DNA from: Candidatus Omnitrophota bacterium
GTDB lineage: Bacteria; Omnitrophota; Omnitrophia; Omnitrophales; Aquincolibacteriaceae
Reading direction: 5' to 3'
DNA: 64,000 nt
Assembly: GCA_041674705.1 (NCBI GenBank)
Contig: JBAYVF010000001.1
Location: forward strand, 129,238-193,237
A program made the translations under genes and the position numbers. Below the pieces are notes generated by a model. It did not search any database, was not told where the DNA came from, and was given only the letters and a program-made list of their open reading frames with translations. Every line of letters starts with the position of its first letter. Within the stretch, counting starts at the first letter, position 1. Positions 2,235 to 64,000 of this stretch are shown piece after piece.

Positions 2235-3269
2235 ATGGAAAAAATACTCTTTTTAGCTCATACAGATTCGAACGGTCATCTTCCGAAGATCGCGCTCGAA
2301 ACCTTGAGCGCGGCCCTTGAGATCCAGAAAGGTCTCGCAGGCTCTACGCTGACAGTCGGTCTTGTCGGAGAGAATGTCCAGGCTGCTGCGGATCAGATCG
2401 CTGCGTGCGGCGCCGCGAAAATTCTCGGAGTGAGCGGGGCTGATTTTGGAATGTCCCGCTACGCGACGGATGTGAAAGCTGCGGAAGCGATCGGAACCGC
2501 TTCCGGCGCGACGATCATGATCGCTCCGGCGACTTCGCGTTTCTCTCGGGCGCTTCCCGGCGCGGCGTTCCGTTTGAAGGCCACGATCGATACGCACGTG
2601 AGCGGTATCCAGATCACAGACGGTGTTCTGCAGATCCAGCGCTGGTATTACCGTCAGCGCATGATGGCAACTTTGACGCGCGCGGCGCGACCCTGGATCC
2701 TTGCGATCGATTCCGGTGTGTTCGAGCCTTGGCAAGGGGCCAAAGGCGCGGCAAAAGTGGAAGCGATCGCGGTTGCTGTGACGGATAAGGAAAAGCGCAC
2801 GAAAATGACAGGCGTTGAAGCGCCTTCCGCGGACGCACAGACCATTCGGCCCGAGGCTGCGATCTTGCTTGTGGCCGGCGCCGGATGGACCAAGAAACAA
2901 ACGGACGGCCAGATCCATGCCAAGGAAGCCGAGAAACACATTCTTGATTTCTTGAAGCATGCCAAGGCGTCGCTTGGGAGCAGCAAATCCCTCGTGGACC
3001 AGGGCTCGGAAGGGGAAGCGGTCCTTTCCTGCATGAGCCATCTGAACCAGGTTGGACAGACCGGCTCCACGCCGCGTCACCCGAAGGGTCTTTCCACCTG
3101 CTGTCATGGCGAAGAACCGCACGTGGTTGGCTGGCGCTTCATTAATGAACGTCGCGCGATCAATACCGACGCTAATTGCGGCTGGGCCCAGGGCAAGGCG
3201 GATGTGCTTTATGTGGCGGATGCTTTTGCCGTCATGGCCAAGGTCAACGAGCTTCTCGCTAAGGGCTGA
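2235..3269 (+). CDS. etfA: electron transfer flavoprotein alpha-subunit-like protein with non-canonical FAD-binding motif
   Basis: Colinear with EtfA. It has VGQTG followed 30 aa later by AINTD (canonical AINKD). The canonical YIAVGISGAIQHLAGM segment reads GLSTCCHGEEPHVVGW here. Confidence 0.7.
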   Translation: MEKILFLAHTDSNGHLPKIALETLSAALEIQKGLAGSTLTVGLVGENVQAAADQIAACGAAKILGVSGADFGMSRYATDVKAAEAIGTASGATIMIAPATSRFSRALPGAAFRLKATIDTHVSGIQITDGVLQIQRWYYRQRMMATLTRAARPWILAIDSGVFEPWQGAKGAAKVEAIAVAVTDKEKRTKMTGVEAPSADAQTIRPEAAILLVAGAGWTKKQTDGQIHAKEAEKHILDFLKHAKASLGSSKSLVDQGSEGEAVLSCMSHLNQVGQTGSTPRHPKGLSTCCHGEEPHVVGWRFINERRAINTDANCGWAQGKADVLYVADAFAVMAKVNELLAKG

Positions 3270-3291
3270 TTTTCAATTTTCAGATTTTAAA

Positions 3292-3332
3292 GGGGCAATT
3301 TCTCCAGGGTCAGGAGAGATTGCCCCTTTTTT
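3292..3332 (+). terminator. intrinsic terminator after the etfB/etfA-like pair
   Basis: GGGGCAATTTCTCC / GGAGAGATTGCCCC stem followed by TTTTTT. Confidence 0.8.
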
Positions 3333-3542
3333 ACATTTTCCCCTCTACAAATAACGCAAGCCGCCCCTTATTTCAGGCTGTTTTTTTTAAAAAAGCGCTA
3401 AAAACACCTGCCATTTTTTAATAGACAAAAGAAACGTTTCAGGTAAACTGTGCCCGGCTTAACAGGCCTTGATAGATCGCACAGTTATCAACCACCCAAA
3501 GATCACCAAACGAAATTGTCGAGACTAAAGGAGGGGTGTGCC

Positions 3543-4175
3543 ATGGTGTTTAAATTCCTGCTTCCCAAAGAAACCAGCTTCTTCAATCTTTTTGATAAAC
3601 AGTCGGATTATGCCGTCCAGGCTGCCACCCATTTTGTGAAAATGGTTGCTGATTATAAAGTGGATGAGACCGAGGTCGGGATCATGAAGGAAATCGAACA
3701 CCTTGGGGATGAAGTAACGCATCAGGTGCTGGATCAGCTCAATGACACCTTCATCACGCCGTTTGACCGCGAAGATATTCACGATCTGGCGAAGAAAATG
3801 GATGATATTGTGGACATGCTTTACACCCTGACCAAGCGTCTTCGTGTTTATAAGATCCTGAGCATGGAGCGAAACCTTACGGAATTTGCCCGCGTGATCG
3901 AAATGTCCGTCAAAGGCGTTTCGCAGGCCGTTAAAGGCCTCCGGGACATGAAAAACAGCAAGGAGATCCTCAAGGCCTGCATTGAAGTGAATAATCTCGA
4001 GAATCTTGGCGATAAGATGCGCGATGATATGTTAGGCGAACTTTTTGAAAAATATGCCAAAGACCCCGTCGCGGTGATCAAGTGGAAAGACATCTATCAG
4101 GACGCGGAAACGGTTCTGGATGTTTGCGAGGACGTCGTGCACGTGGTCGAATCCATTCTCGTCAAACACGCTTAG
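3543..4175 (+). CDS. DUF47 / PhoU-like phosphate-transport accessory protein
   Basis: Begins MVFKFLLPKETSFFNLFDKQ, with an all-helical PhoU-like repeat composition. AAGGAGG RBS upstream of the internal ATG. Immediately precedes a PiT transporter, the classic pairing. Confidence 0.8.
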   Translation: MVFKFLLPKETSFFNLFDKQSDYAVQAATHFVKMVADYKVDETEVGIMKEIEHLGDEVTHQVLDQLNDTFITPFDREDIHDLAKKMDDIVDMLYTLTKRLRVYKILSMERNLTEFARVIEMSVKGVSQAVKGLRDMKNSKEILKACIEVNNLENLGDKMRDDMLGELFEKYAKDPVAVIKWKDIYQDAETVLDVCEDVVHVVESILVKHA

Positions 4176-4188
4176 CGGGGGAGCGATC

Positions 4189-5181
4189 ATGACCACCTGG
4201 ATCCTTTTTCTTATCCTGCTCGCCCTCACGTTCGATTTTCTGAACGGGTTCCACGATTCCGCGAATTCCATTGCGACGGTCGTTTCCACCCGCGTTCTTT
4301 CTCCACAACATGCGGTGATCTGGGCCGCATTTTTCAACTTTATCGCGTTTCTCTTCTTCGGGCTCCATGTCGCCAATACGATCGGCAAGGGGATCATTGA
4401 TATCAACATTGTGGACAGCCAGATCATCTTTGGCGCCCTGATGGGGGCTTGCGCCTGGAATATCATCACCTGGTATTTCGGCCTTCCGACCAGTTCTTCT
4501 CACGCGTTGATCGGCGGGTTGGTGGGCTCCGCGCTTGTGAAAGCCGGGACAGGATCTTTGGTCTGGAGCGGCATCATCAAGACGGTCGCTTTTATTTTGA
4601 TCTCACCAGTGGTCGGGCTCTTCCTAGGCGTGGTTTATGGCGTGATCGTTCACTGGCTTGCCCGGAAGAGTTCGCCGGCTGGGGTCGATCACTGGTTCCG
4701 GAAAGGGCAGTTGGTTTCCGCCGCGCTTTATAGCCTGGGACATGGCGGTAATGACGCGCAGAAGACCATGGGTATTATCGCGAGCCTTCTTTTCAGCGCG
4801 GGGCTTCTCGGAAAAGAATTCCATATTCCTTTCTGGGTCGTGATCTCGTGTCAGGCCGCCATTGCCATCGGGACGATGTTCGGCGGCTGGAGGATCGTGA
4901 AGACCATGGGGCAAAAAGTGGCAAAACTTCGTCCGGTAGACGGTTTTTGCGCAGAAGCAGGAGCTGCTACGAGCTTGTTCATAGCCTCGGCTTTCGGCAT
5001 TCCGGTCAGTACGACGCATACGATCACCGGCGCGATCATGGGGGTGGGTTCTTTGAAGCGTATGAGCGCGGTCCGATGGGGCGTCGCGGGAAGCATTGTC
5101 TGGGCGTGGATCATTACGATCCCGTGCGCGGCGGCGATCTCGGCTATTTCTTACGCTGCGGCCCGATGGGTTGCCCATTAA
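4189..5181 (+). CDS. pitA: inorganic phosphate transporter, PiT family
   Basis: Both PiT signature halves are present: FDFLNGFHDSANSIAT and GHGGNDAQKTMG. Polytopic membrane protein. Confidence 0.9.
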   Translation: MTTWILFLILLALTFDFLNGFHDSANSIATVVSTRVLSPQHAVIWAAFFNFIAFLFFGLHVANTIGKGIIDINIVDSQIIFGALMGACAWNIITWYFGLPTSSSHALIGGLVGSALVKAGTGSLVWSGIIKTVAFILISPVVGLFLGVVYGVIVHWLARKSSPAGVDHWFRKGQLVSAALYSLGHGGNDAQKTMGIIASLLFSAGLLGKEFHIPFWVVISCQAAIAIGTMFGGWRIVKTMGQKVAKLRPVDGFCAEAGAATSLFIASAFGIPVSTTHTITGAIMGVGSLKRMSAVRWGVAGSIVWAWIITIPCAAAISAISYAAARWVAH

Positions 5182-5261
5182 AGATTCGAGATTGAGTTAA
5201 CAGATTATTGTTTGGGATTTATCCTTCCGTAGTGAGATGGCAGTCAAAATCAGAGGTCTTT

Positions 5262-5975
5262 GTGATTCCAAATTCCGGAAAGCTTCGAAATGTTTTTTCC
5301 ACGACGCTCCTTTGCGGGATCATCCTGCTTCTGATCCAGGGAATTTGCACTCCCGTGGCAATCGCTTCTCCGGCTAAAGACGAAGATTTCGGGATCTGGA
5401 ATGTCTATGATGTTGAGAAAAAACTGAACAAACAATGGAAAATGTGGGCGGGTGAAGAGCTGCGTTTTCGGGAACATAACGGGATTTATTACACCGAAAC
5501 CCATGTAGGGACGAACTATCAGCCATCCAAATATCTGGCCCTGGGTGCCTTGTACCTCGAGAACCGTGCATCCCGGACCCAAAAGAAGGACGAAATCTGG
5601 TATTGGGAATCCGAACCGCGCATTTATATGACGCCGCAGCTTCCGGTCTATGGGTTCCTTCTGGAAAACCGTAACATGCTGGGATTCCGTTGGCGGCAGG
5701 AATCGAAATTTGCGATGGTGTACCGGAACATGACGACCCTCACGTCCCCCTGGAAATGGACGCAGTTCGAATTTCAGCCTTACACCGCCAATGAAATTTT
5801 TCTGGAAACGAACAGGAACGGAATGATTGAAGATCGGTTCTATTCGGGATTCAAAGCCCATTGGTGGGGGCCATTTTATGGATCGATCTTCTATTTACGC
5901 CAATCCAAAAAGAACTCCATCGGAAAATGGACTGCGCTTAATATCCTTGGCACCAGCCTCAAGATCGTTTTTTAG
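5262..5975 (+). CDS. putative outer-membrane beta-barrel protein (DUF2490-like)
   Basis: Signal peptide (KLRNVFSTTLLCGIILLLIQGICTPVAIA-SP). Alternating aromatic/polar beta-strand pattern, ending in ...SLKIVF. Start is uncertain (TTG 5208 or GTG 5262). Confidence 0.45.
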   Translation: MIPNSGKLRNVFSTTLLCGIILLLIQGICTPVAIASPAKDEDFGIWNVYDVEKKLNKQWKMWAGEELRFREHNGIYYTETHVGTNYQPSKYLALGALYLENRASRTQKKDEIWYWESEPRIYMTPQLPVYGFLLENRNMLGFRWRQESKFAMVYRNMTTLTSPWKWTQFEFQPYTANEIFLETNRNGMIEDRFYSGFKAHWWGPFYGSIFYLRQSKKNSIGKWTALNILGTSLKIVF

Positions 5976-6017
5976 CTGTTTTTCACAAGTGATTTTCGAG
6001 TTTCTTCAGAGAAATTG

Positions 6018-6026
6018 TGGTAAAAT
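6018..6026 (+). promoter_or_regulatory. possible extended -10 element (TGGTAAAAT) upstream of ETF-QO
   Basis: TGnTAAAAT motif about 45 nt upstream of the ATG at 6072. No clear -35. Confidence 0.3.
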
Positions 6027-6071
6027 GCCGCCTCGATTTCAGAATTTCCTCATAAGAGAACTTATTTTAAT

Positions 6072-7736
6072 ATGCCAAAATCCGAAATCATTGAAACCGA
6101 CATTCTGATCGTGGGCGGTGGCGTCGCGGGCCTCGCGACGGCTATCCATCTTGCGGACCTTGCGGCCGGTTCGGACAAGAAACCCGGTATTCTTGTCCTC
6201 GAAAAGGGGAGCTCTATCGGAAGCCACACGCTTTCGGGCGCTGTGATCGATTCCTCCACGCTGAAGGAACTTCTCCCCGGTGTTGATCCCAAGGATTTCC
6301 CTTTCGAATCTCCCGTCAAAAAAGAAGGTGTTTATTTTTTTACTCCCAAGCTTGCCCTCAAAGCGCCTTTCACGCCGCCTTTTATGGGGAACCACGGGAA
6401 TTATGTGGTTTCGCTCGGGAAGATGACGCGCTGGCTTGCCGAGATCGCGGAAAAAAAAGGCGTGCAGGTCTACCCGGGATTCAGTGTTTCGGAAATGCTT
6501 TATCAAAATGATCGCGTGATCGGGGCGAAGACGATCGATACCGGCGTGGATAAGCACGGTAAGCCGATGGAAAATTTTCAGGCCGGAAATGAGATCCATG
6601 CCAAGATCACGATCCTGGCGGAAGGGCCCCGCGGCAGTCTGATGAAGGCGCTTTGCGGCAAATTGAAATTAGACCGCCAGAGCAACCCGCAGGTCTATTC
6701 CACCGGCGTGAAGGAACTCTGGGATCTTCCGGAAGGAACATTCGAGGCCGGACGGATCATGCACACATTGGGCTTTCCTTTTTCCTTCAATCACTTCGGA
6801 GGCGGCTTTGTTTACGGCCTGAACGGGCGCCAAGTCGTGGTCGGGATCGCGGCAGGGCTGGATTACACCGATCCCACATTCGACTCCCATGCGGCGCTTC
6901 AGGTTTATAAAAAACATCCTTTTATCGCGAAGATTCTCGAAAAAGGGAAGCTCCTGCGGTATGGGGCGAAGACCATCCCTGAAGGAGGGCTTTATTCTTT
7001 GCCGAAGCTTTATCATGACGGGGTCATGATCGTCGGGGATTCTGCCGGATTCTTAAGCATGCCGAGCCTGAAAGGCGTTCATCTTGCGATCGAGTCGGGG
7101 ATGTTGGCCGCGAAGTCCGCATTTGAAGCGCTCAAGAAAAATGATTTTTCGGGAACACAACTCAGCCTTTACGAAACGCTGTTCCAGAAAAGCGCCACAC
7201 ATAAAACCCTTTCGCGTACGCGCAATTTTCGCGCGGGGTTTGGGCACGGGATGATCCTTGGGGCTTTTTATTTCGCGACGCAGATCCTCACCGGAGGGCG
7301 CGGCATCACGCCGTCGGGAAAGATGAAGACGCATGAAGATGCGGCCTGTTACAAGAAGCTCGCAGACGTTAAAAAAACATTTTGCGAGAAGTTCGCAAAA
7401 GAGCTCGTGTTTGATAAACAGCTGACGTTCGACAAGGTAACGGACGTTTATTTTTCAGGCTCTAAACACGACGAAGAGCAGCCCTGCCATCTCCGCGTGC
7501 TGGATTTCAACCTTTGCCGGGAGACCTGCATTCCAAAATACGGCGGGCCGTGCCAGCATTTCTGTCCGGCGGAGGTTTACGAGATCGTGACGGATCTGAA
7601 GACCGGGAAAAAAGACCTGCATCTTCATCCGGCCAATTGCGTGCATTGTAAGACCTGCGATATCAAAGATCCGTTTGGAAACATTGAATGGGCGGTGCCG
7701 TACGGCGGCGACGGGCCCGAATACGAGAATCTCTAA
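6072..7736 (+). CDS. electron-transfer flavoprotein:quinone oxidoreductase (ETF-QO, FixC+FixX-type fusion)
   Basis: N-terminal FAD fold DILIVGGGVAGLATA. The C-terminal 4Fe-4S region CVHCKTCDIKDPFGNIEWAVPYGGDGPEY closely matches the ETF-QO signature. Confidence 0.9.
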   Translation: MPKSEIIETDILIVGGGVAGLATAIHLADLAAGSDKKPGILVLEKGSSIGSHTLSGAVIDSSTLKELLPGVDPKDFPFESPVKKEGVYFFTPKLALKAPFTPPFMGNHGNYVVSLGKMTRWLAEIAEKKGVQVYPGFSVSEMLYQNDRVIGAKTIDTGVDKHGKPMENFQAGNEIHAKITILAEGPRGSLMKALCGKLKLDRQSNPQVYSTGVKELWDLPEGTFEAGRIMHTLGFPFSFNHFGGGFVYGLNGRQVVVGIAAGLDYTDPTFDSHAALQVYKKHPFIAKILEKGKLLRYGAKTIPEGGLYSLPKLYHDGVMIVGDSAGFLSMPSLKGVHLAIESGMLAAKSAFEALKKNDFSGTQLSLYETLFQKSATHKTLSRTRNFRAGFGHGMILGAFYFATQILTGGRGITPSGKMKTHEDAACYKKLADVKKTFCEKFAKELVFDKQLTFDKVTDVYFSGSKHDEEQPCHLRVLDFNLCRETCIPKYGGPCQHFCPAEVYEIVTDLKTGKKDLHLHPANCVHCKTCDIKDPFGNIEWAVPYGGDGPEYENL

Positions 7737-7737
7737 T

Positions 7738-9705
7738 ATGGGACTCAAAATAATTTGTTTGATGAAACAAGTGCCGCTCCCGACCGAGATGCGTATGGGC
7801 GCGGACGGGTTGATGGACCGTACCAAGGCGAAATCCTCGATCAATGCGGATTGCACGTTCGGTCTGGAACAGGGGCTTGAGATCAAAAAGCAGGTGCCGG
7901 ACGCGGAGCTGATCGTGGTTTCCATGGGGCCGACGAGTTTTGAACAGTCCCTTAAAAAAGCCCTGGCTATGGGCTATGACCGCGCGGTTCTTCTCTCGGA
8001 CCGGAAACTGGGAGGATCGGACACCTTTGCCACGGGCTATGCCATTGCCTCGCTTCTCAAAAAACTTGGGTTCTCCAAGGAGAGCAAAGACCCCTTCATC
8101 ATTTTCTCTGGACGCCAAACGACGGACGGGGATACGGCGCATGTGCCTTCCCAGACGGCCGAGAATCTCGGCATCCCTCAGGCGACTTTCGTCGAAAAAG
8201 TAGAGTTCAAGGGAGATCATTTGAAGGTCCGCCGCATCATCGAAGGCGGTTTCCAAGTCCTTAAAGTGCCGGTCCCATGTCTTATTTCAATCGCTCCCAC
8301 CGCGACTCCGGCACGCCGGCCGTCCCTGAAAGGCGCCATTCGCGCGAAAAACACCAAGACCGAGATCTGGACGCTGGATCAGACCGGGGCGGATGCCAGC
8401 GTGGTAGGCCTGAGCGGTTCTCCGACGCTTGTCTCAAAAGTGGTGGATATCCAAAAAGACAGGCCGCCGGTCAATATGATCTCCGGGCATGAACCTAAAG
8501 ATCTTGCAGCCAGCCTTGTCTCCGAGATCGAAAAGGTCAAAGACGCGATCGGCGGAGGCCACGGGCAGCATGCCGGAGCCGGCGATGAAAAAAGTGCGGC
8601 GGGGGAAAAAGCAAAAACGGATGTGGATTTCCCAAGAGTGGATTTTCGTAATGGCGCGCGGGGCGTTCTGACCTGGATCGAAATGCTTGGGCAAACACCT
8701 TCGCGGTCTTCGCTCGAGATCCTGAACCCTGCCAGGAAACTGGCCGATCAGCTCCAGACCCAGGTGACCGCGATCGTGACCGGGCATAACCTCAAGGATG
8801 TGGCTTCTGAGATCATCGCCTATGGTGCCGACGAGGTCGTGGTGGTGGATGATCCGCGTCTTAAAGAATACAGGATCCTGCCGGTCGCAGCCGTGATCGC
8901 GCAGTGGATCGAACACAAGCGTCCCGAGATCGCGCTTTTTGGAGCTACGACCTCGGGCCGTGAACTTGCGCCGAGACTTGCGAGCCGTGTGAGGGCCGGC
9001 GTGACCGCCGACTGCACCAGCCTCAAGGTCGGGGAATACGCGCACCGTATGAAGAAAACTGTTTTTTATCCTGTGCTTGAGTCCATCCGTCCGACTTACG
9101 GTGAAAGCAAGCTTGCGACGATCATCGGGTTTTGGTGCCCGCAGATGGCGACCGCGCGTGCCGGGACTTTTAAAATTTTACCCAAAGATCCAAGCCGGAA
9201 GGGAACTGTGCGCGAATTCACGCCTACTTTTAGAGAGAGCGATTTTGCGGTGGAAGTGCTGGAGGTCAAACGCGAGGCGGGAGGCGGCGATAATCTTTTT
9301 GTCGCGGATATTATTATTTCCGGAGGCCGTCCGGCGGGTGATCATGATGATTTCAAATTGATCAAGGAACTCGCCCAGGCCCTGCAAGATCAGGGGATCA
9401 ATGCTGATTGGGGCGCGAGCCGTCACGCGGTGGATAACGGTTATGCGCCGTACGCGCGCCAGGTCGGGCAGACGGGAAAGACCGTCCGGCCGAAGCTCTA
9501 TATCGCTGTCGCGATCTCAGGGGCCATCCAGCATCTCGCAGGGATGAAAGAATCCGGCAAGATCATTGCGATCAACCAGGACCCGCAGGCCGCGATCTTT
9601 CGCCATGCGGATTTCGGGATCGTCCGTGATTATCAGGAAGTGCTTCCCGAGCTGATCGCCAGGGTCAAGGCCGGCTTTACCTTCGGGCTGGCAACGAGCA
9701 AATAG
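7738..9705 (+). CDS. fused electron transfer flavoprotein beta-alpha polypeptide
   Basis: N-terminal EtfB domain (MGLKIICLMKQVP...) and a Gly/charged linker. The C-terminal EtfA domain has the canonical VGQTGKTVRPKLYIAVAISGAIQHLAGMK. The ATG lies 1 nt after the ETF-QO stop. Confidence 0.85.
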   Translation: MGLKIICLMKQVPLPTEMRMGADGLMDRTKAKSSINADCTFGLEQGLEIKKQVPDAELIVVSMGPTSFEQSLKKALAMGYDRAVLLSDRKLGGSDTFATGYAIASLLKKLGFSKESKDPFIIFSGRQTTDGDTAHVPSQTAENLGIPQATFVEKVEFKGDHLKVRRIIEGGFQVLKVPVPCLISIAPTATPARRPSLKGAIRAKNTKTEIWTLDQTGADASVVGLSGSPTLVSKVVDIQKDRPPVNMISGHEPKDLAASLVSEIEKVKDAIGGGHGQHAGAGDEKSAAGEKAKTDVDFPRVDFRNGARGVLTWIEMLGQTPSRSSLEILNPARKLADQLQTQVTAIVTGHNLKDVASEIIAYGADEVVVVDDPRLKEYRILPVAAVIAQWIEHKRPEIALFGATTSGRELAPRLASRVRAGVTADCTSLKVGEYAHRMKKTVFYPVLESIRPTYGESKLATIIGFWCPQMATARAGTFKILPKDPSRKGTVREFTPTFRESDFAVEVLEVKREAGGGDNLFVADIIISGGRPAGDHDDFKLIKELAQALQDQGINADWGASRHAVDNGYAPYARQVGQTGKTVRPKLYIAVAISGAIQHLAGMKESGKIIAINQDPQAAIFRHADFGIVRDYQEVLPELIARVKAGFTFGLATSK

Positions 9706-9769
9706 AAGAGTGTTTCTTGACGGGGGGCGTACTTACAATTAAAATTTTCAAGGAATGGTCGATAATCTA

Positions 9770-9850
9770 CCCTGGCTTTGAATTTCTTTTTCTTGAAGGT
9801 AGCCAGGGTTGCCCAATTTCAACTTCGTTGAAATGGATAGGTATTGGGAC
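9770..9850. repeat. REP/BIME-like palindromic unit pair (CCCTGGCT...AGCCAGGG + GCCCAAT...ATTGGGAC)
   Basis: Two adjacent hairpin units. The second is a member of the 41-nt family also seen at 16798, 19143, 22144, 54157 and 54199. Confidence 0.8.
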
Positions 9851-9885
9851 TAGGGCGTCATAAAAGCTAACAAAAGGGAGGGATT

Positions 9886-11745: not shown

Positions 11746-11835
11746 CTCGCTTGTTTTGTATCCGGAGCTTTTCAAAAGAATGATATCGCTTGGGAGGCTC
11801 CGTGTTAGAATGCAGAAAATGTTTCAGGAGGATTT

Positions 11836-16547: not shown

Positions 16548-16753
16548 GATATTATCCTCGGAAGTTTATATGTCCTCTCATGCAGGAATGTCCGTATAAT
16601 AACCAAACGCGCTCTGAAAAGGAAATCTATTTTTCCTCAAAAGGGCAAGAGGCCTGTTGCGACACACTTGTCCGGCGGCTATCCTTGTCTTTCATTTCTT
16701 TTCATTAAGGATGACATACTGATTTTTATTCACAATGAATGGTAATCAGTATA

Positions 16754-16838
16754 GTCCCAACCACCTTTAAATTTTTTATAGGGTTGGGACAAGGATGGCC
16801 CCAATTTCAACTGCGTTGAAATGGATAGGTATTGGGAC
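16754..16838. repeat. REP/BIME-like palindromic unit pair (GTCCCAACC...GGTTGGGAC + GCCCCAAT...ATTGGGAC)
   Basis: Second unit differs from the 9811 copy only in the hairpin loop (TGC vs TTC) and one C. Confidence 0.8.
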
Positions 16839-16891
16839 TAAAATGAGACGTGTTTTTTAAAATTTATATCGCATGAAAGGAGCTCCGCGCC

Positions 16892-19135: not shown

Positions 19136-19142
19136 GGTATCA

Positions 19143-19226
19143 GTCCCAATTTTTATCAATTTCAGAGAATCTGAAATTGGGGCAGTCCTTGCCACCGTTT
19201 AATAAAAAAATCTCAGGCAAGGACAG
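19143..19226. repeat. REP/BIME-like unit pair (GTCCCAAT...ATTGGGGC + GTCCTTGCC...GGCAAGGAC)
   Basis: Read on the minus strand it has the same order and orientation as the other loci. It ends 7 nt before the AI-2E ATG. Confidence 0.8.
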
Positions 19227-19263
19227 TCTAGCGGATTCCTTTGTTTTGGCAAGAGGAACGCTT

Positions 19264-21103: not shown

Positions 21104-22144
21104 ATGGAAACTATTGTGGAAACAAAACCATTGTGTTCGCTCTTCGGCTCCTGCGGAGGATGCCAGTATCAAGACATGCCTTACGAGGAGGAGCTTTCCC
21201 GCAAAGAGGGGATCCTCAAAGAACTTCTTATAAAGGAGCTCAGCCTTTCCGGCGATGTTTTTGAGCCGATCGCTTCTTCGCCGGAGATTTATCACTACAG
21301 AAACCGGCTGGATCTCACCTTGCGCAAAAGGAATAACGGAGAGCGGCAAATGGGTTTTATGTTACCCGGGACGCAGAGGCTTCAGGAAGTCACGGTTTGC
21401 GCCATAGCCCGTAAAGAGATCAATGATTTCCTGCCCACATTAAAAGAAGAAGCGATTCGCAAATTTCCGGAGGATTATAAGGTCGCGAATCTGGTGGTCC
21501 GCGTGGGAGATGAAGGCAAGGTGTTTTGGGGCGGCATTGGCCGCCGGTCGCTTCGGATGAAAGCGGAAGATTATTTTTGGACAACCGTGCATGGACGGAA
21601 GATCTTTTACGCTCTCGACACATTTTTTCAGGCGAATCTTTCGATCCTCGAAAAGGTTGTTTCACGCATCGAAAGTCTTATTAAGTGGCAGAAGGACACA
21701 GTTTTTCTGGATCTTTATTCGGGCGTCGGCCTTTTCGGGATCGCCCTGGCGGATCGCGCTAAGGAAGTGGTCATGATCGAAGAATGCCGCGATTCTGTGA
21801 CCCTCGCTGAGTTCAATGTCGCTTATCACCGGCTGACACACGTCAAAATGCTTGTAGGAAAAGTTGAGACACACCTCTCGGAGGTCTTGACGGAGCATGC
21901 TGGGAAGCCTTGCGTCGCTTTGATCGACCCCCCGCGCGGTGGCCTTGCAAGTTCTGCGATCGAAACCTTAGGTGCGGCGAAAAGCCTCGAGTCCTTGTTT
22001 TATCTGTCCTGTTCGCCCGAATCGCTTGCGCGGGATCTGAAACATTTGGCGAAGGTCGGCTGGAAGGTCCGGAAGATCATGCCGTTCGATTTTTTCCCGC
22101 GGACGCGACATTTGGAGACATTGGCATGGCTCGCACGTTCCTAG
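21104..22144 (+). CDS. RNA (uracil-5)-methyltransferase, RumA/TrmA family (no TRAM domain)
   Basis: N-terminal Fe-S Cys cluster CSLFGSCGGCQYQ. SAM-binding LDLYSGVGLFG and catalytic DPPRGG...YLSCSP motifs. Confidence 0.82.
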   Translation: METIVETKPLCSLFGSCGGCQYQDMPYEEELSRKEGILKELLIKELSLSGDVFEPIASSPEIYHYRNRLDLTLRKRNNGERQMGFMLPGTQRLQEVTVCAIARKEINDFLPTLKEEAIRKFPEDYKVANLVVRVGDEGKVFWGGIGRRSLRMKAEDYFWTTVHGRKIFYALDTFFQANLSILEKVVSRIESLIKWQKDTVFLDLYSGVGLFGIALADRAKEVVMIEECRDSVTLAEFNVAYHRLTHVKMLVGKVETHLSEVLTEHAGKPCVALIDPPRGGLASSAIETLGAAKSLESLFYLSCSPESLARDLKHLAKVGWKVRKIMPFDFFPRTRHLETLAWLARS

Positions 22145-22800
22145 TCCCAAACCCTATCAATTTCAGAGAATCTGAAATTGGGGCAACCCTTGTCAACCCT
22201 ATAGAAAAAAAACCGAAGACAAGGGTAGCCGAGAAGCACGAACCTCTCGTGTTCAAGGATCTCTTCGGGAATTCCAATCCCGTCGAAATGGAGATCGGAT
22301 GCGGGAAGGGAAAATTTCTCGTGGCTCGCTCGATTGAAAACCCGGGAACCAATTTTCTGGGGGTCGATCGCGTCAGTAAGTTCATGAATATCGGGAAGAC
22401 GCGCGTCCAAAAACGGGCGCTTCCGAACATCCGGTTTCTGCGAGCTGAGGCGCGGGCTTTTTTAACCGAGGCGATCGCGCCCGGAAGCGTGAGTATCTTT
22501 CATATCTATTTCCCGGATCCCTGGCCGAAACGCCGGCATCAGGCCCGCCGTGTTTTCACAGAGGAACTTCTCAGACTGCTTCATTCGCGGCTTGTGGCGG
22601 GAGGGCTGATCGAGATCGCGACCGACGATAAGGACTATTTTACCGCCATGAAGAAAACCATAGCGGTGACCCAGGAACTCTGGGAGAATGTGCGCGAAAC
22701 GGTGAATGAGCGGATCCTGGACGGGTTGAATAAGACCAGTTACGAACTCAAATGGGCGGCTGAAGGCCGGCCTCTTTACTATACGGAGCTTAAGAAGTAA
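22126..22800 (+). CDS. trmB: tRNA (guanine-N7)-methyltransferase
   Basis: VEMEIGCGKGKFL SAM motif and FPDPWPKRRH signature. Start is uncertain: ATG 22126 makes the repeat coding, while GTG about 22248 does not. Confidence 0.8.
   Translation: MARTFLVPNPINFRESEIGATLVNPIEKKPKTRVAEKHEPLVFKDLFGNSNPVEMEIGCGKGKFLVARSIENPGTNFLGVDRVSKFMNIGKTRVQKRALPNIRFLRAEARAFLTEAIAPGSVSIFHIYFPDPWPKRRHQARRVFTEELLRLLHSRLVAGGLIEIATDDKDYFTAMKKTIAVTQELWENVRETVNERILDGLNKTSYELKWAAEGRPLYYTELKK
22144..22226. repeat. REP/BIME-like unit pair in reverse orientation relative to flanking genes
   Basis: GTCCCAAACCCTATCAATTTCAGAGAATCTGAAATTGGGGC followed by ACCCTTGTC...GACAAGGGT. Confidence 0.8.
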
Positions 22801-27194: not shown

Positions 27195-27211
27195 TCTTAA
27201 AGGAGGGCTTG

Positions 27212-27333
27212 CCCCGTTAGAGATTGTCGCATCAGTATTTTATCGAAACGATTCGCAACAGAAGTGAGGAGATCATGGACACCATATTAAAAACAGACGG
27301 AAGCGCTGAAGGCGCTTCCTATCTCTAACGGGG
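27212..27333. repeat. MITE-like element with CCCCGTTAGAGAT / ATCTCTAACGGGG inverted termini (copy A)
   Basis: 13-nt perfect terminal inverted repeat. Subterminal hairpin GGAAGCG...CGCTTCC is shared with copy C. Ends 6 nt before the cysK ATG. Confidence 0.7.
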
Positions 27334-36987: not shown

Positions 36988-37087
36988 AGCCTCCCCAGCG
37001 TCGAGCGTTTTAAAAATATTTTATGAGCGCTTGAGGGATTTTAGTCCTGGGGTCTTCGAAATGCAATCGGAGAGTCAAAAAAAGAGG

Positions 37088-42265: not shown

Positions 42266-42282
42266 AACAGTAACAGGGCTCG

Positions 42283-42385
42283 CCCCGTTAGAGTCTCAAA
42301 TGACTTTGGCGGAGGAAAGAGCGATCGTTTTCAAGGTTTTTGGGGCAGAAAATTTTTTCAACATTTGGTTAAGACTCTAACGGGG
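42283..42385. repeat. MITE-like element with CCCCGTTAGAGTC / GACTCTAACGGGG inverted termini (copy B)
   Basis: 13-nt perfect terminal inverted repeat; ends 5 nt before the yebC ATG. Confidence 0.65.
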
Positions 42386-50827: not shown

Positions 50828-50836
50828 GATGGCTTG

Positions 50837-50957
50837 CCCCGTTAGAGATTTTCAGGAACGAGGGTATAATAGCGTTCCACCTTTAAATGGGATTAATGTG
50901 AAAGAGAAGCGCAATTTTACGGAAGCGATTTAAAATCGCTTCCTATCTCTAACGGGG
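50837..50957. repeat. MITE-like element with CCCCGTTAGAGAT / ATCTCTAACGGGG inverted termini (copy C)
   Basis: Termini are identical to copy A. It shares GGCTTG 5' flank identity and the subterminal GGAAGCG-loop-CGCTTCC hairpin. Confidence 0.7.
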
Positions 50958-52394: not shown

Positions 52395-52901
52395 ATGAAA
52401 TTTTTTGAGATCGAACAGAAATACAAAATGACGGATCCGAAACGAGTTCGAGCGGCTCTCAAAAAAATGGGCGCCCGGAAGATCGCCGGGGGGACCGAAA
52501 CAAACGAATTTTTCGATCTCGGGAAGCAGCTCAGGGAAAGACGGCTTGCCATGAGGCTGCGAACCTACGGGAAGAAGGCTGTGCTGACGCTCAAAGGTCC
52601 ACGGCTCAAATCCAGGTTCACGAAGCGTATGGAGATCGAAGCGCCCGTGGATTACGGGCCCTTAAAAACGATCCTTGGTCTTGCGGGGTTCAAGGTTGTT
52701 AAAGGCTACAAAAAAGAGCGAGAGCTCTACCGGCTTGGGCAAAGTCTCATCGCCCTGGATTGGCTTCCGCGGTTTGGACGGTTTCTCGAGATCGAAGGTC
52801 CGCTTCAGTCGATCCCGCGAATCGAGAAAAAACTGGGACTTCGGGACAGCGATCGTGAAGAACGGTCTTATTTGCAGATGTTATTCAACTGGAAACAGTA
52901 A
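52395..52901 (+). CDS. CYTH-domain protein (class IV adenylate cyclase / triphosphatase-like)
   Basis: N-terminal EIEQKY (ExExK) signature. Confidence 0.8.
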   Translation: MKFFEIEQKYKMTDPKRVRAALKKMGARKIAGGTETNEFFDLGKQLRERRLAMRLRTYGKKAVLTLKGPRLKSRFTKRMEIEAPVDYGPLKTILGLAGFKVVKGYKKERELYRLGQSLIALDWLPRFGRFLEIEGPLQSIPRIEKKLGLRDSDREERSYLQMLFNWKQ

Positions 52902-52915
52902 AGGGAGAAGAATTT

Positions 52916-53923: not shown

Positions 53924-54105
53924 CTGCCATCAGGAAGATGAAAATTAGAGTTGAGACCGGTTGCATTTTTCTTAAGTGCTGCGTTATGGTCAACTTTACG
54001 GGTTCGCAGTACTTGCACCGTTAACCCGTAAAAATAAATGGAAAACAGGGCGAGATAAGGTATCATGCATCTATCCCAGCTTTAGATTTTTTTATGTAAG
54101 GGGTA

Positions 54106-54239
54106 GTTGGGACAGCCCTGATTTTTATTTTCTTTTCCTGGATGGTAATCAGGGCAGCCCCAATCTCAGCTTTGCTTCGATTGATTGGAATTGGGACTGC
54201 CCCAATTTCAACTTCGTTAAAATTGATAGGTATTGGGAC
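54106..54239. repeat. tandem array of about 3.5 REP/BIME-like palindromic units ending at the downstream ATG
   Basis: TTGGGAC-AG-CCCTGATT...AATCAGGGC-AG-CCCCAAT...ATTGGGAC-TG-CCCCAAT...ATTGGGAC, then C and the ATG at 54241. Confidence 0.85.
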
Positions 54240-54240
54240 C

Positions 54241-54612
54241 ATGAAATCGAACGATCTGGATTTTGAGATCTCATTCCTCGAAGGCGTTCTAAAACACCGC
54301 CCCAATTACATTGACGCCTTGGCCCCGCTCGCGGAGGCCTATACACGCCAAGGTCTCTTCGAAAAAGGTCTCGAGATCGATAAGCGGCTCGCTTTTCTCT
54401 GTCAGGATGATCCGGTGGTTCATTACAATCTTGCCTGCAGTTATGTCCTTTCCGGCTATACCGCAAAGGCCCTGACGGCGCTTCGGCAGGCAGTTCGCCT
54501 GGGATTCACGGACCTGGCGCATCTGGGAAAAGACCCGGACTTGAAGCCTCTGCGCGAGTATCCTCCGTTCCAGAAATGGCTTTTGACCCTTTCTCAAAAA
54601 ACAAAATCCTGA
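54241..54612 (+). CDS. small TPR-like protein
   Basis: TPR-type helices (ALAPLAEAYTRQGLFEKGLEI, VHYNLACSYVLSGYTAKAL). Confidence 0.62.
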   Translation: MKSNDLDFEISFLEGVLKHRPNYIDALAPLAEAYTRQGLFEKGLEIDKRLAFLCQDDPVVHYNLACSYVLSGYTAKALTALRQAVRLGFTDLAHLGKDPDLKPLREYPPFQKWLLTLSQKTKS

Positions 54613-63172: not shown

Positions 63173-63195
63173 GCGAGGTGCTGGAAAAAAAGACA

Positions 63196-63378
63196 GTCCC
63201 AATTCGTGTCATCCCGCCGCTACAAAGGCGGGATGGGGCAGTCCTCGTCAACCATTTAAGAAGTAAAATTTATGACGAGGACAGAACTTCTGAAATTTGG
63301 TATACTTCCGTCTCTTATTTGACCCCAGATTCGTTCGGGGCGCCCTGATTTCTATAAAAATTTCAAGGAAATCAGGAC
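63196..63378. repeat. mixed-orientation array of REP/BIME-like palindromic units
   Basis: Four units: GTCCCAAT...(ATCCCGCC/GGCGGGAT)...GGGGC; GTCCTCGTC/GACGAGGAC; CCCCAGA..TTCGGGG; CCTGATTTC/GAAATCAGG followed by ACTGCC. Confidence 0.7.
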
Positions 63379-63498
63379 TGCCTCCGAAGTCTGTTGAGAT
63401 TTTTAATTAAGGTTCATCGGGGCGTAGCGGTCGCCACTAATGCTTGGGCGGCCAGCCCCCCAGTGTTTCAGTGGCGGGCGCAGCAGAATAGATTAAAA

Positions 63499-63744
63499 AT
63501 GAATTATTGTGTTTATATTCTGGAAAGTCAGAAAAACGGTTCGCGGTACATAGGCTTCACCCAGGATCTGGCAAAGCGCCTTCAGGAACATAATTCCGGG
63601 AGAAATGTTTCTACCCGAAGCAAAGGGCCATGGAAGCTCTTATATTCTGAAGAGCAGCCAACAAAATTATTGGCTGGGAAGCGTGAAAAGTTCTTTAAGA
63701 GTGGCCACGGACGAATTGTTATAAAAAATCTCATCGGGGCGTAG
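63499..63744 (+). CDS. small GIY-YIG nuclease-family protein
   Basis: YCVYILES...RYIGFT (GIY-YIG), RLQEHN, KREKFFK motifs. The stop codon lies inside tRNA-Pro. Confidence 0.85.
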   Translation: MNYCVYILESQKNGSRYIGFTQDLAKRLQEHNSGRNVSTRSKGPWKLLYSEEQPTKLLAGKREKFFKSGHGRIVIKNLIGA

Positions 63745-63808
63745 CGCAGCCTGGTAGCGCACACGCTTGGGGTGCGTGCGGTCGAAGGTTCAAATCCTTT
63801 CGCCCCGA
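63735..63808 (+). tRNA. tRNA-Pro (TGG)
   Basis: Manual cloverleaf: acceptor CGGGGCG/CGCCCCG, D arm GCGC-AGCCTGGTA-GCGC, anticodon stem CACGC/GCGTG with loop TTGGGGT, T arm GAAGG-TTCAAAT-CCTTT. Confidence 0.9.
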
Positions 63809-63817
63809 AATTCAGAA

Positions 63818-63941: not shown

Positions 63942-64000
63942 GTCCCAATTGACAATTAGTGCTTTAAAGAAAATTGGGACTGCATTGATTTCCAATTATT
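63942..64000. repeat. REP/BIME-like unit (GTCCCAAT...ATTGGGAC), array continues off the right edge
   Basis: GTCCCAATTGACAATTAGTGCTTTAAAGAAAATTGGGAC followed by the TG junction. Confidence 0.65.

Follow-up and report, generated by a model that had tools for sequence, protein, structure and literature searches.

The 64,000-nt stretch of Candidatus Omnitrophota contig JBAYVF010000001.1 analyzed here (the window) carries copies of an intergenic repeat that is about 85 nt long and forms two hairpins. We consider it fairly likely that this repeat is a non-autonomous mobile DNA element of an Omnitrophota clade, moved as folded single-stranded DNA by an enzyme acting in trans, probably of the HUH Y1 type. 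Three lines of evidence carry this reading: compensatory change in both stems, a flanking dinucleotide that is inherited with the element and coupled to a base inside it, and nine orthologous sites at which one genome has the element and a relative lacks it. Comparison loci fetched for the analysis are identified by L-numbers (e.g., L030 and L109).

A two-hairpin repeat found in Omnitrophota

Alignment of copies resolved a full element of ~85 nt with two hairpins of 37–42 nt each. A sequence-only reading of the window had taken a 41-nt palindrome as the repeat unit; this palindrome is the 3' half of the true unit, the two-hairpin module, and the alignment agrees with its statement that each palindrome is preceded by a second hairpin with a variable stem. 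The layout is 5' C-N1-N2, hairpin 1, an N2'-Y-G linker of 2–3 nt, hairpin 2, and C-N1-N2. The stem of hairpin 1 is 9 bp long; it begins with (A/G)(T/C)CC (pattern (A/G)(T/C)CC-YWRNY) and ends with GG(A/G)(T/C), and its middle five pairs vary among copies. The loop of this hairpin is ~22 nt long and T-rich, with a T-run followed by AA(T/G)GG. Hairpin 2 (unit 2) consists of CCCC-AAT, an inner hairpin, an unpaired TGATAGGTAT-like bulge, and ATT-GGGA, with unit ends CCCCAAT...ATTGGGAC. The unit-2 foot G-C-C-C-C...G-G-G-A-C is invariant in all copies (e.g., 9811–9815 with 9846–9850); on the written strand, it contains a C.A mismatch, which becomes a T.G wobble on the opposite strand, as also occurs in ~22% of hairpin-1 copies. 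The terminal inverted repeat is confined to the 4–5 bases of (G)TCC/GGAC. The earlier model of an outer stem enclosing an inner hairpin needs correction: most copies have an inner hairpin of 10 bp (CAATTTCAnn/nnTGAAATTG, usually with TTC between the arms) that competes with the CCCAAT/ATTGGG outer stem. The whole inner hairpin is exchangeable, with the foot and bulge kept (54157, 63194).

A covariance model (R1) was built from 31 copies and used to search genome and metagenome loci. Genome loci yielded 45 copies and metagenome loci 142, the latter from the first 100 of 113 further loci scanned, for a total of 177–181 distinct copies depending on the flank included. The window has six full-module loci (9.8, 16.8, 19.1, 22.1, 54.1, and 63.2 kb; 60–97 bits), a unit-only copy at 54200–54237, and three lone hairpins, at a density of one element per ~9 kb. 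This replaces an initial count of seven loci, in which the 63194 copy was not listed; the five copies listed at that time are present with the letters as written, and a diverged copy at 54157–54197 is also real. A search for the loose outer-stem pattern alone returned 7 matches where 4.2 are expected and is not significant by itself, whereas the whole elements are (E values 1e-13 to 1e-23).

A scan of species-representative genomes recovered the full element only in Candidatus Omnitrophota metagenome-assembled genomes (MAGs) and in MAGs syntenic with the window, representing at least 13 species. Several of these MAGs share 60%–93% protein identity with the window along syntenic stretches, which identifies the window as Omnitrophota DNA. 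Element-bearing MAGs include JAZDFE01, JBDRCT01, CAYZYT01, CAYMER01, and MHFU01. Viral contigs (IMG/VR) had no matches to the element pattern. Searched against Rfam at gathering thresholds, the window gave only two tRNAs, and two element regions searched by E value (even at E = 10) gave nothing above 19 bits, and on these results a known RNA family was rejected as the identity of the repeat. No description of the element was found in the literature on Omnitrophota or Omnitrophica repeats, repetitive extragenic palindromes (REPs), MITEs (miniature inverted-repeat transposable elements), or hairpins. Judged from these searches, the element appears to belong to no described family and to be a repeat of a clade of uncultured Omnitrophota.

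Compensatory change in both hairpins

Both stems covary strongly, and nearly all pairs are Watson-Crick. In the 45 copies from genome loci, 96.4% of cells are paired, compared to 81.7% in shuffles and at most 51% with slid partners, and double changes occur at 13 of 21 pairs. The 138 distinct metagenome copies, which lay outside model building, have 94.0% of cells paired (78.7% when shuffled, at most 49% when slid) and double changes at 15 of 21 pairs. Both hairpins are maintained by Watson-Crick compensatory change. The switch from AC:GT to GA:TC at the two loop-proximal pairs of the inner stem, first pointed out in the window, is exactly as claimed, and the A-T/G-C and C-G/A-T alternation extends over 45 and 138 further copies. 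In each of eight single-stranded DNA folds, the element is more stable than its shuffles (z of −2.9 to −6.3), and two modules folded on both strands have z values of about −4.6 to −4.9 on either strand. The compensatory excess over shuffles in both copy sets upholds the earlier claim of selection on secondary structure, which had left the choice between RNA and single-stranded or cruciform DNA; the data favour DNA.

Covariation could instead reflect RNA folding, with the repeat acting in transcripts as an mRNA stabilizer, a processing site, or a small RNA, and owing its spread and persistence to that function. Strong covariation in both helices fits this explanation, as do the conservation of unpaired nucleotides (TGATAGGTAT, and the loop-1 T-run followed by AATGG) and the tight placement of the intergenic copies at gene boundaries, at a median of ~50 nt from flanking open reading frames (ORFs). 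An activity in mRNA is also described for known REPs (PMC8266576). On the written strand, however, G.U-type cells are rare and not above A.C-type cells (66 versus 102), so that there is no G.U excess. Orientation does not depend on the neighboring genes: among 140 copies with two called neighbors, 50 are sense, 40 antisense (P = 0.34), 26 divergent, and 24 convergent, which places one third of copies between divergent or convergent genes. The Rfam result counts against an RNA as well, and the precise insertion and absence of copies, together with the flanking dinucleotide rule described below, require a process at the DNA level. Because orientation is independent of neighboring genes, a promoter or 5' untranslated region function is removed and an RNA-only function weakened; we regard the latter as unlikely. 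A structure acting in DNA rather than RNA is favored by the sequence data, because there is no written-strand wobble excess, no orientation bias, and a precise presence or absence at orthologous sites.

A promoter or operator module, in which the inner hairpin's 3' arm would supply TTGAAA as a −35 box and the palindromes would bind a regulator, is the least probable of the explanations considered. The five window copies at first seemed to face a downstream ATG. Pfam assignments then put the copies at 22142 and 63194 antisense between plus-strand genes, the 140-copy count agreed, and a promoter or 5' untranslated region element was rejected. What speaks for promoter activity is the position of TTGAAA or CTGAAA exactly 17 bp upstream of the flank hexamer, where 21% of TA-type copies match TATAAT at five or more of six positions (7.6% in the background), and a case in the window (16817–16845) in which TTGAAA-N17-TAAAAT, at the unit copy 16798–16838, lies 48 nt upstream of the start of a T2SSE ATPase gene (16892). 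TTGAAA is present in only 40 of 178 copies, however, and a good −10 box in ~8%; 40 copies are in antisense orientation, and 24 others have convergent genes on their two sides; and the TAAAAT box predates insertion in the comparison of L109 with the window. A binding site shared within one genome would, moreover, be conserved and not covarying. The near-consensus sigma-70 promoter (TTGAAA-N17-TAnnnT) in a minority of copies looks like occasional co-option or site preference and not like the primary function.

A flanking dinucleotide coupled to an internal base

The dinucleotide 5' of the element (before TCC) is identical to the dinucleotide 3' of it (after GGGAC) in 122 of 173 distinct copies (70%), compared to ~20% expected by chance. 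TA is the most frequent type, followed by AG and CG and then by TG, CA, and GG. The base before the dinucleotide is C in 161 of 177 copies (91%), giving a profile of C, N, R before the stem; a weak upstream GGAC signal reflects insertion beside existing hairpin feet. N2 is a purine without exception, and in 161 of 173 copies (93%) it makes a Watson-Crick pair with N2', the base directly following hairpin 1. The flanking dinucleotide is thus inherited with the element and tied to one of its internal bases. Since covariation with such a base is not expected of a random target duplication, the element must either carry the site or choose it.

This coupling bears on two further explanations. In the first, a classical MITE would be moved in double-stranded form by a DDE transposase that makes a 2-bp duplication and prefers TA, as in IS630/Tc1-type elements, Correia, and RUP. 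The 2-bp direct repeat at copies, with TA the commonest (55 to 64 of 173) and a single copy in empty sites, is as such a MITE would have it, and the ends form short inverted repeats, (G)TCC...GGAC. These repeats are only 4–5 bp, however, and not the 10 bp or more matching a parent insertion sequence (IS) that a MITE would have. The length of 2 bp is fixed, but a true target duplication should not have a second base that is always a purine and is paired with an internal base, and seven different dinucleotides are in use. Stem covariation is not needed by a double-stranded DNA transposase, and no transposase-like gene family was found beside the copies. We think a DDE-mobilized MITE improbable.

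The second is site-specific recombination at a shared 2-bp crossover core, by a serine recombinase (IS607-like) or by a tyrosine recombinase with folded substrates (attC-like). A recombinase would explain a dinucleotide that is the same at both junctions, single in the empty site, and heritable within the element; CCCAAC...GTTGGG, which recalls attC R''/R' cores, occurs as the stem of some hairpin-1 copies, and the stems vary in sequence while keeping structure, as attC sites do. The copies nevertheless occur in both orientations among housekeeping genes and not in cassette arrays, most stems lack AAC/GTT triplets, and no recombinase gene is recurrent beside the elements. Serine recombinases use duplex DNA, which leaves the stem covariation unexplained. 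An attC-like identity was rejected on genomic context and on the missing core triplets, and recombination of either kind seems very unlikely.

Filled and empty sites, nesting, and tandem copies

Synteny comparison identified nine orthologous sites occupied in one genome but vacant in a relative, each with exact boundaries (Table 1). The flanking dinucleotide is present once in every empty site. These comparisons indicate that the element has repeatedly inserted between genes. One nested composite occurs at two unrelated loci, at 16.7 kb in the window and in L030. L133 holds the nested composite seen at 54 kb in the window where L143 has a simple module, which shows that a whole module was inserted in the linker of a resident module; the 54-kb mosaic in the window has the same arrangement, with one module sitting in the linker of another. 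The four-hairpin 54-kb locus and the L133/L143 pair bear out the mosaic, modular architecture proposed from the sequence. Exact head-to-tail tandems are present in L040 and L131, and nested copies share one orientation. New copies often lie directly after an existing hairpin foot (GGAC-NN), and the tandem and nested mosaics arise because new copies land beside existing hairpins.

The L030 composite has its own setting. In L030, a close relative (~90% protein identity), positions 1294–2260 correspond to window 3269–6051 without three window genes (3450–5975), and the nested composite is found there instead. A rearrangement thus adjoins an element in L030.

Search for a partner enzyme

The window and 1.04 Mb of element-centered DNA were searched by tblastn and phmmer with IS200 TnpA (validated as PF01797) and Escherichia coli RayT (b0228). 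The sequence-only statement that the window has no RAYT (REP-associated tyrosine transposase) or IS200-type gene agrees with both searches. A weak match in L093 (E = 0.15) was dropped as a Y1 gene, with no ORF behind it, and ORFs between inverted element pairs, considered as partners, were identified as HPr, MscL, and a lipoprotein.

Several results weigh against mobilization by a Y1 enzyme. No Y1 transposase or RAYT was found in the window or in the 1.04 Mb of element-centered DNA (best tblastn E = 0.47; none by phmmer), clustering of 1,109 ORFs yielded no enriched neighbor gene family, and a search for a split autonomous copy (hairpin 1...gene...unit 2) found none. N1 and Y, the second linker base, follow no simple pairing rule (T/T 75, A/A 33, C/G 33, G/C 8); they are identical when A or T and complementary when G or C, which neither a pairing nor a repeat rule fits. 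A 2-bp flanking repeat is also expected from a DDE transposase or a serine recombinase. Hints about the strand that folds are weak and conflict, since wobble counts point to the opposite strand and GC-skew placement to the written strand (86:55, with the written strand on the G-rich strand). Conservation of the unpaired bulge and the foot is strong between species, and some copies have been kept at orthologous positions (L045/L095, L066/L104); both findings could equally reflect a host function.

With these points considered, we infer with moderate confidence that the element is mobilized as folded single-stranded DNA by a structure-specific enzyme acting in trans, most plausibly of the HUH/Y1 kind, and that its linker serves as a minimal guide. 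The folded element would be moved by a structure-specific nuclease/ligase, with a Y1 enzyme of the IS200/IS605-TnpA or RAYT kind the likeliest. Hairpins 1 and 2 would act as the left and right subterminal palindromes, and the linker dinucleotide as a guide that selects the C-N1-N2 cleavage and target site. On excision the target would be restored, and new copies would enter 3' of a matching C-N-R. Inserted copies would persist for long periods, and some may be co-opted, for example where the TTGAAA −35 box falls 17 bp upstream of a −10 box started by the TA. A bolder version, which we hold only tentatively, is that this is an undescribed hairpin transposition system for single-stranded DNA, in which a 2-nt linker programs which C-N-R dinucleotide is cleaved and targeted, the guide is minimal and varies naturally between copies, and the enzyme is a divergent HUH protein or another kind. 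Such a system would explain the heritable flanks, the self-targeting beside hairpin feet, and the absence of recognizable Y1 genes.

Comparison with known systems

Repeats of the REP and bacterial interspersed mosaic element (BIME) type, mobilized with RAYTs (REPtrons, Proteobacteria), are among the systems closest to this element. Both are short, high-copy intergenic hairpin repeats with stems kept by compensatory change, both form mosaics and tandem arrays and persist for long periods, and both are likely mobilized as folded single-stranded DNA. The Omnitrophota hairpins (37–42 nt, ~180 copies in 1 Mb of loci) fall within the description of a REP as an intergenic, high-copy palindrome of 20–50 nt. 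REPs have a conserved tetranucleotide, usually GTAG, directly 5' of the palindrome; the 177 copies have no GTAG on either strand and no equivalent of it, and C-N-R is found instead. BIMEs consist of REP and inverted REP pairs with defined linkers, whereas the Omnitrophota module has two dissimilar hairpins in direct order. The repeated flanking dinucleotide coupled to an internal base and the uncultured phylum as host also set it apart. The label of REP/BIME-like given by the sequence-only reading holds for a dispersed intergenic hairpin family but not for membership. The element appears to work like REP/BIME without being REP/BIME, because GTAG and inverted REP pairs are absent and the search of 1.04 Mb turned up no RAYT. 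The properties of REP/RAYT systems are described in PMC8266576, where the choice of insertion sites by REPs is still an open question.

Ends of IS200/IS605 elements and their miniature derivatives likewise have two subterminal hairpins on one strand and no long terminal inverted repeats. In IS608, the cleavage or target site pairs with a guide sequence that lies 5' of a hairpin foot, and after excision the target is restored with nothing gained or lost (PMC3201880). Here too the empty site is precise and the target kept in the nine pairs, a pattern that in this element is indistinguishable from a 2-bp duplication; the sequence 5' of the second hairpin foot is complementary to the site 3' of the hairpin, at least at N2/N2', while N1/Y is non-Watson-Crick; and insertion occurs beside a short specific motif. 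The Omnitrophota element differs in a site of 2–3 nt that is the same at both ends and polymorphic among copies (TA, AG, CG, TG, CA, GG), in a left site that abuts hairpin 1 (19 nt away in IS608-type elements), in a stem 1 that is highly variable among the copies of one genome, and in that no tnpA/tnpB partner was found. Functionally, the element is closest to REP/BIME and to miniature IS200/IS605 derivatives.

Other systems share fewer features. Correia (Neisseria), RUP (Streptococcus), and other TA-duplicating MITEs are ~100 nt, intergenic, and foldable, with TA the commonest flank and promoter boxes at the ends of some copies. They have terminal inverted repeats of at least 20 bp, strict TA duplication, and a DDE (IS630-type) partner, unlike the Omnitrophota element with its 4–5 bp, seven dinucleotides, and internal-base covariation. 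Integron attC sites are folded single-stranded substrates that combine variable sequence with conserved structure, conserved feet, and variable central loops. The Omnitrophota element has no cassette arrays, lies in both orientations among core genes, lacks conserved AAC/GTT cores, and was seen in no integrase context.

Copies in the window and neighboring genes

Table 1. Copies of the two-hairpin element in the window, and orthologous site pairs with and without a copy
Feature	Position (strand)	R1 match	Bits	Parts or site	Genomic setting
Module 1	9768–9852 (+)	9761–9852 (+)	89.6	TA; hairpin 1 ACCCTGGC...GCCAGGGT (9769–9809, 25-nt T-rich loop); TG; unit 2 (9811–9850); TA	ETF gene end (9705) on one side, small ORF start (9886) on the other
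Nested composite, 16.7 kb	16681–16840 (+)	16751–16840 (+)	62.9	Outer hairpin-1 arms ATCCTTGTC (16681–16689) / GACAAGGAT (16788–16796); two more hairpins in its loop (16716–16752, 16754–16790); GG; unit 2 (16798–16838); TA	Divergent intergenic region, histidine kinase (−) / T2SSE ATPase (+)
Module 3	19141–19232 (−)	19141–19232 (−)	97.5	TG flanks; unit 2 19143–19183; hairpin 1 GTCCTTGC...GCAAGGAC 19185–19224	Sense, between minus-strand epimerase and AI-2E transporter genes
Module 4	22142–22234 (−)	22142–22234 (−)	96.7	TA flanks; unit 2 22144–22184; hairpin 1 ACCCTTGT...ACAAGGGT 22186–22226	Antisense, between two plus-strand tRNA/rRNA methyltransferase genes; adjoins stop codon 22142–22144
54-kb mosaic	54074–54241 (+)	54107–54199 (+); 54200–54237 (unit only)	91.6 and 44.4	Four hairpins, direct order: lone hairpin 54074–54112; hairpin 1 GCCCTGAT...ATCAGGGC 54115–54155; diverged unit 2B 54157–54197; unit 2A 54199–54239	
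Module 6	63194–63290 (−)	63194–63290 (−)	60	TG flanks; hairpin 1 63241–63282	Antisense, after MauE/DoxX gene (plus-strand genes on both sides, Pfam)
Lone hairpin-1-type element	63342–63378 (−)			GTCCTGAT...ATCAGGGC	
Lone perfect hairpin	63942–63980 (no strand)			GTCCCAAT(T)...(A)ATTGGGAC; 21–23 nt loop; foot as in unit 2	
Site pair	Filled: window 9768–9852; empty: L030			Single TA in L030	
Site pair	Filled: L109; empty: window 37036–37049 (−)			Full module, TA on both sides; empty site GGAC TA AAATCC	
Site pair	Filled: L066:6323; empty: L104				
Site pair	Filled: L218; empty: L147				
Site pair	Filled: L199; empty: window 52891–52907 (−)			Single TA in empty site	
Site pair	Filled: L193; empty: window 11798–11813 (+)			TA on both sides; empty site GTGT TA GAATGC	
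Site pair	Filled: L122; empty: L168				
Site pair	Filled: L104; empty: L189				
Site pair	Filled: L160; empty: L127				

Two of the window copies have an exchanged inner hairpin. In unit 2B of the 54-kb mosaic it is replaced by CAATCTCAGC.../...GCTTCGATTG with the foot and bulge retained; unit 2A of the same mosaic is the unit-only R1 match. In unit 2 of module 6 the replacement is GC-rich (ATCCCGCC/GGCGGGAT), and the CCCC...TTGGGAC foot and the bulge are retained. The site of module 6 holds a different module set in its ortholog L069, from a related MAG. In L069 2786–5114, orthologous to the region right of window 63.2 kb, a tyrosine-integrase-like gene comes after the element site, and LexA/UmuD-like and DinB-like genes come next, which suggests an integrated island absent from the window.

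Other features of the window were observed near the copies or along it. Upstream of module 1, a 676-amino-acid ORF (7675–9705) has electron-transfer flavoprotein (ETF) and ETF_alpha FAD-binding domains and is an apparent beta-alpha fusion of this flavoprotein. A small ORF with a GIY-YIG domain (63394–63744; Pfam E = 7.6e-17) abuts or overlaps a tRNA-Pro gene (63734–63809), and the stretch formed by the two (63394–63809) is flanked by the two lone family hairpins of Table 1. A 17-nt motif, GGCT(T/C)GCCCCGTTAGAG, lies directly after the stop codons of three plus-strand genes (27205–27222, 42276–42293, and 50830–50847) and looks species-specific, because it is absent from all 231 other fetched loci.

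Significance

The element is unsurprising in principle, yet it is undescribed, is widespread across a clade, and has an unusually informative insertion signature. It is a repeat family abundant in a clade of a poorly understood, uncultured phylum, and it can serve to mark the lineage, to assess MAG contiguity and binning, and to type strains. The internal-base coupling, together with the nine filled and empty sites, provides a concrete and testable model of how REP-like elements may choose their insertion sites. If the partner enzyme turns out to be new, the element would add a minimal, naturally reprogrammable insertion system for single-stranded DNA.

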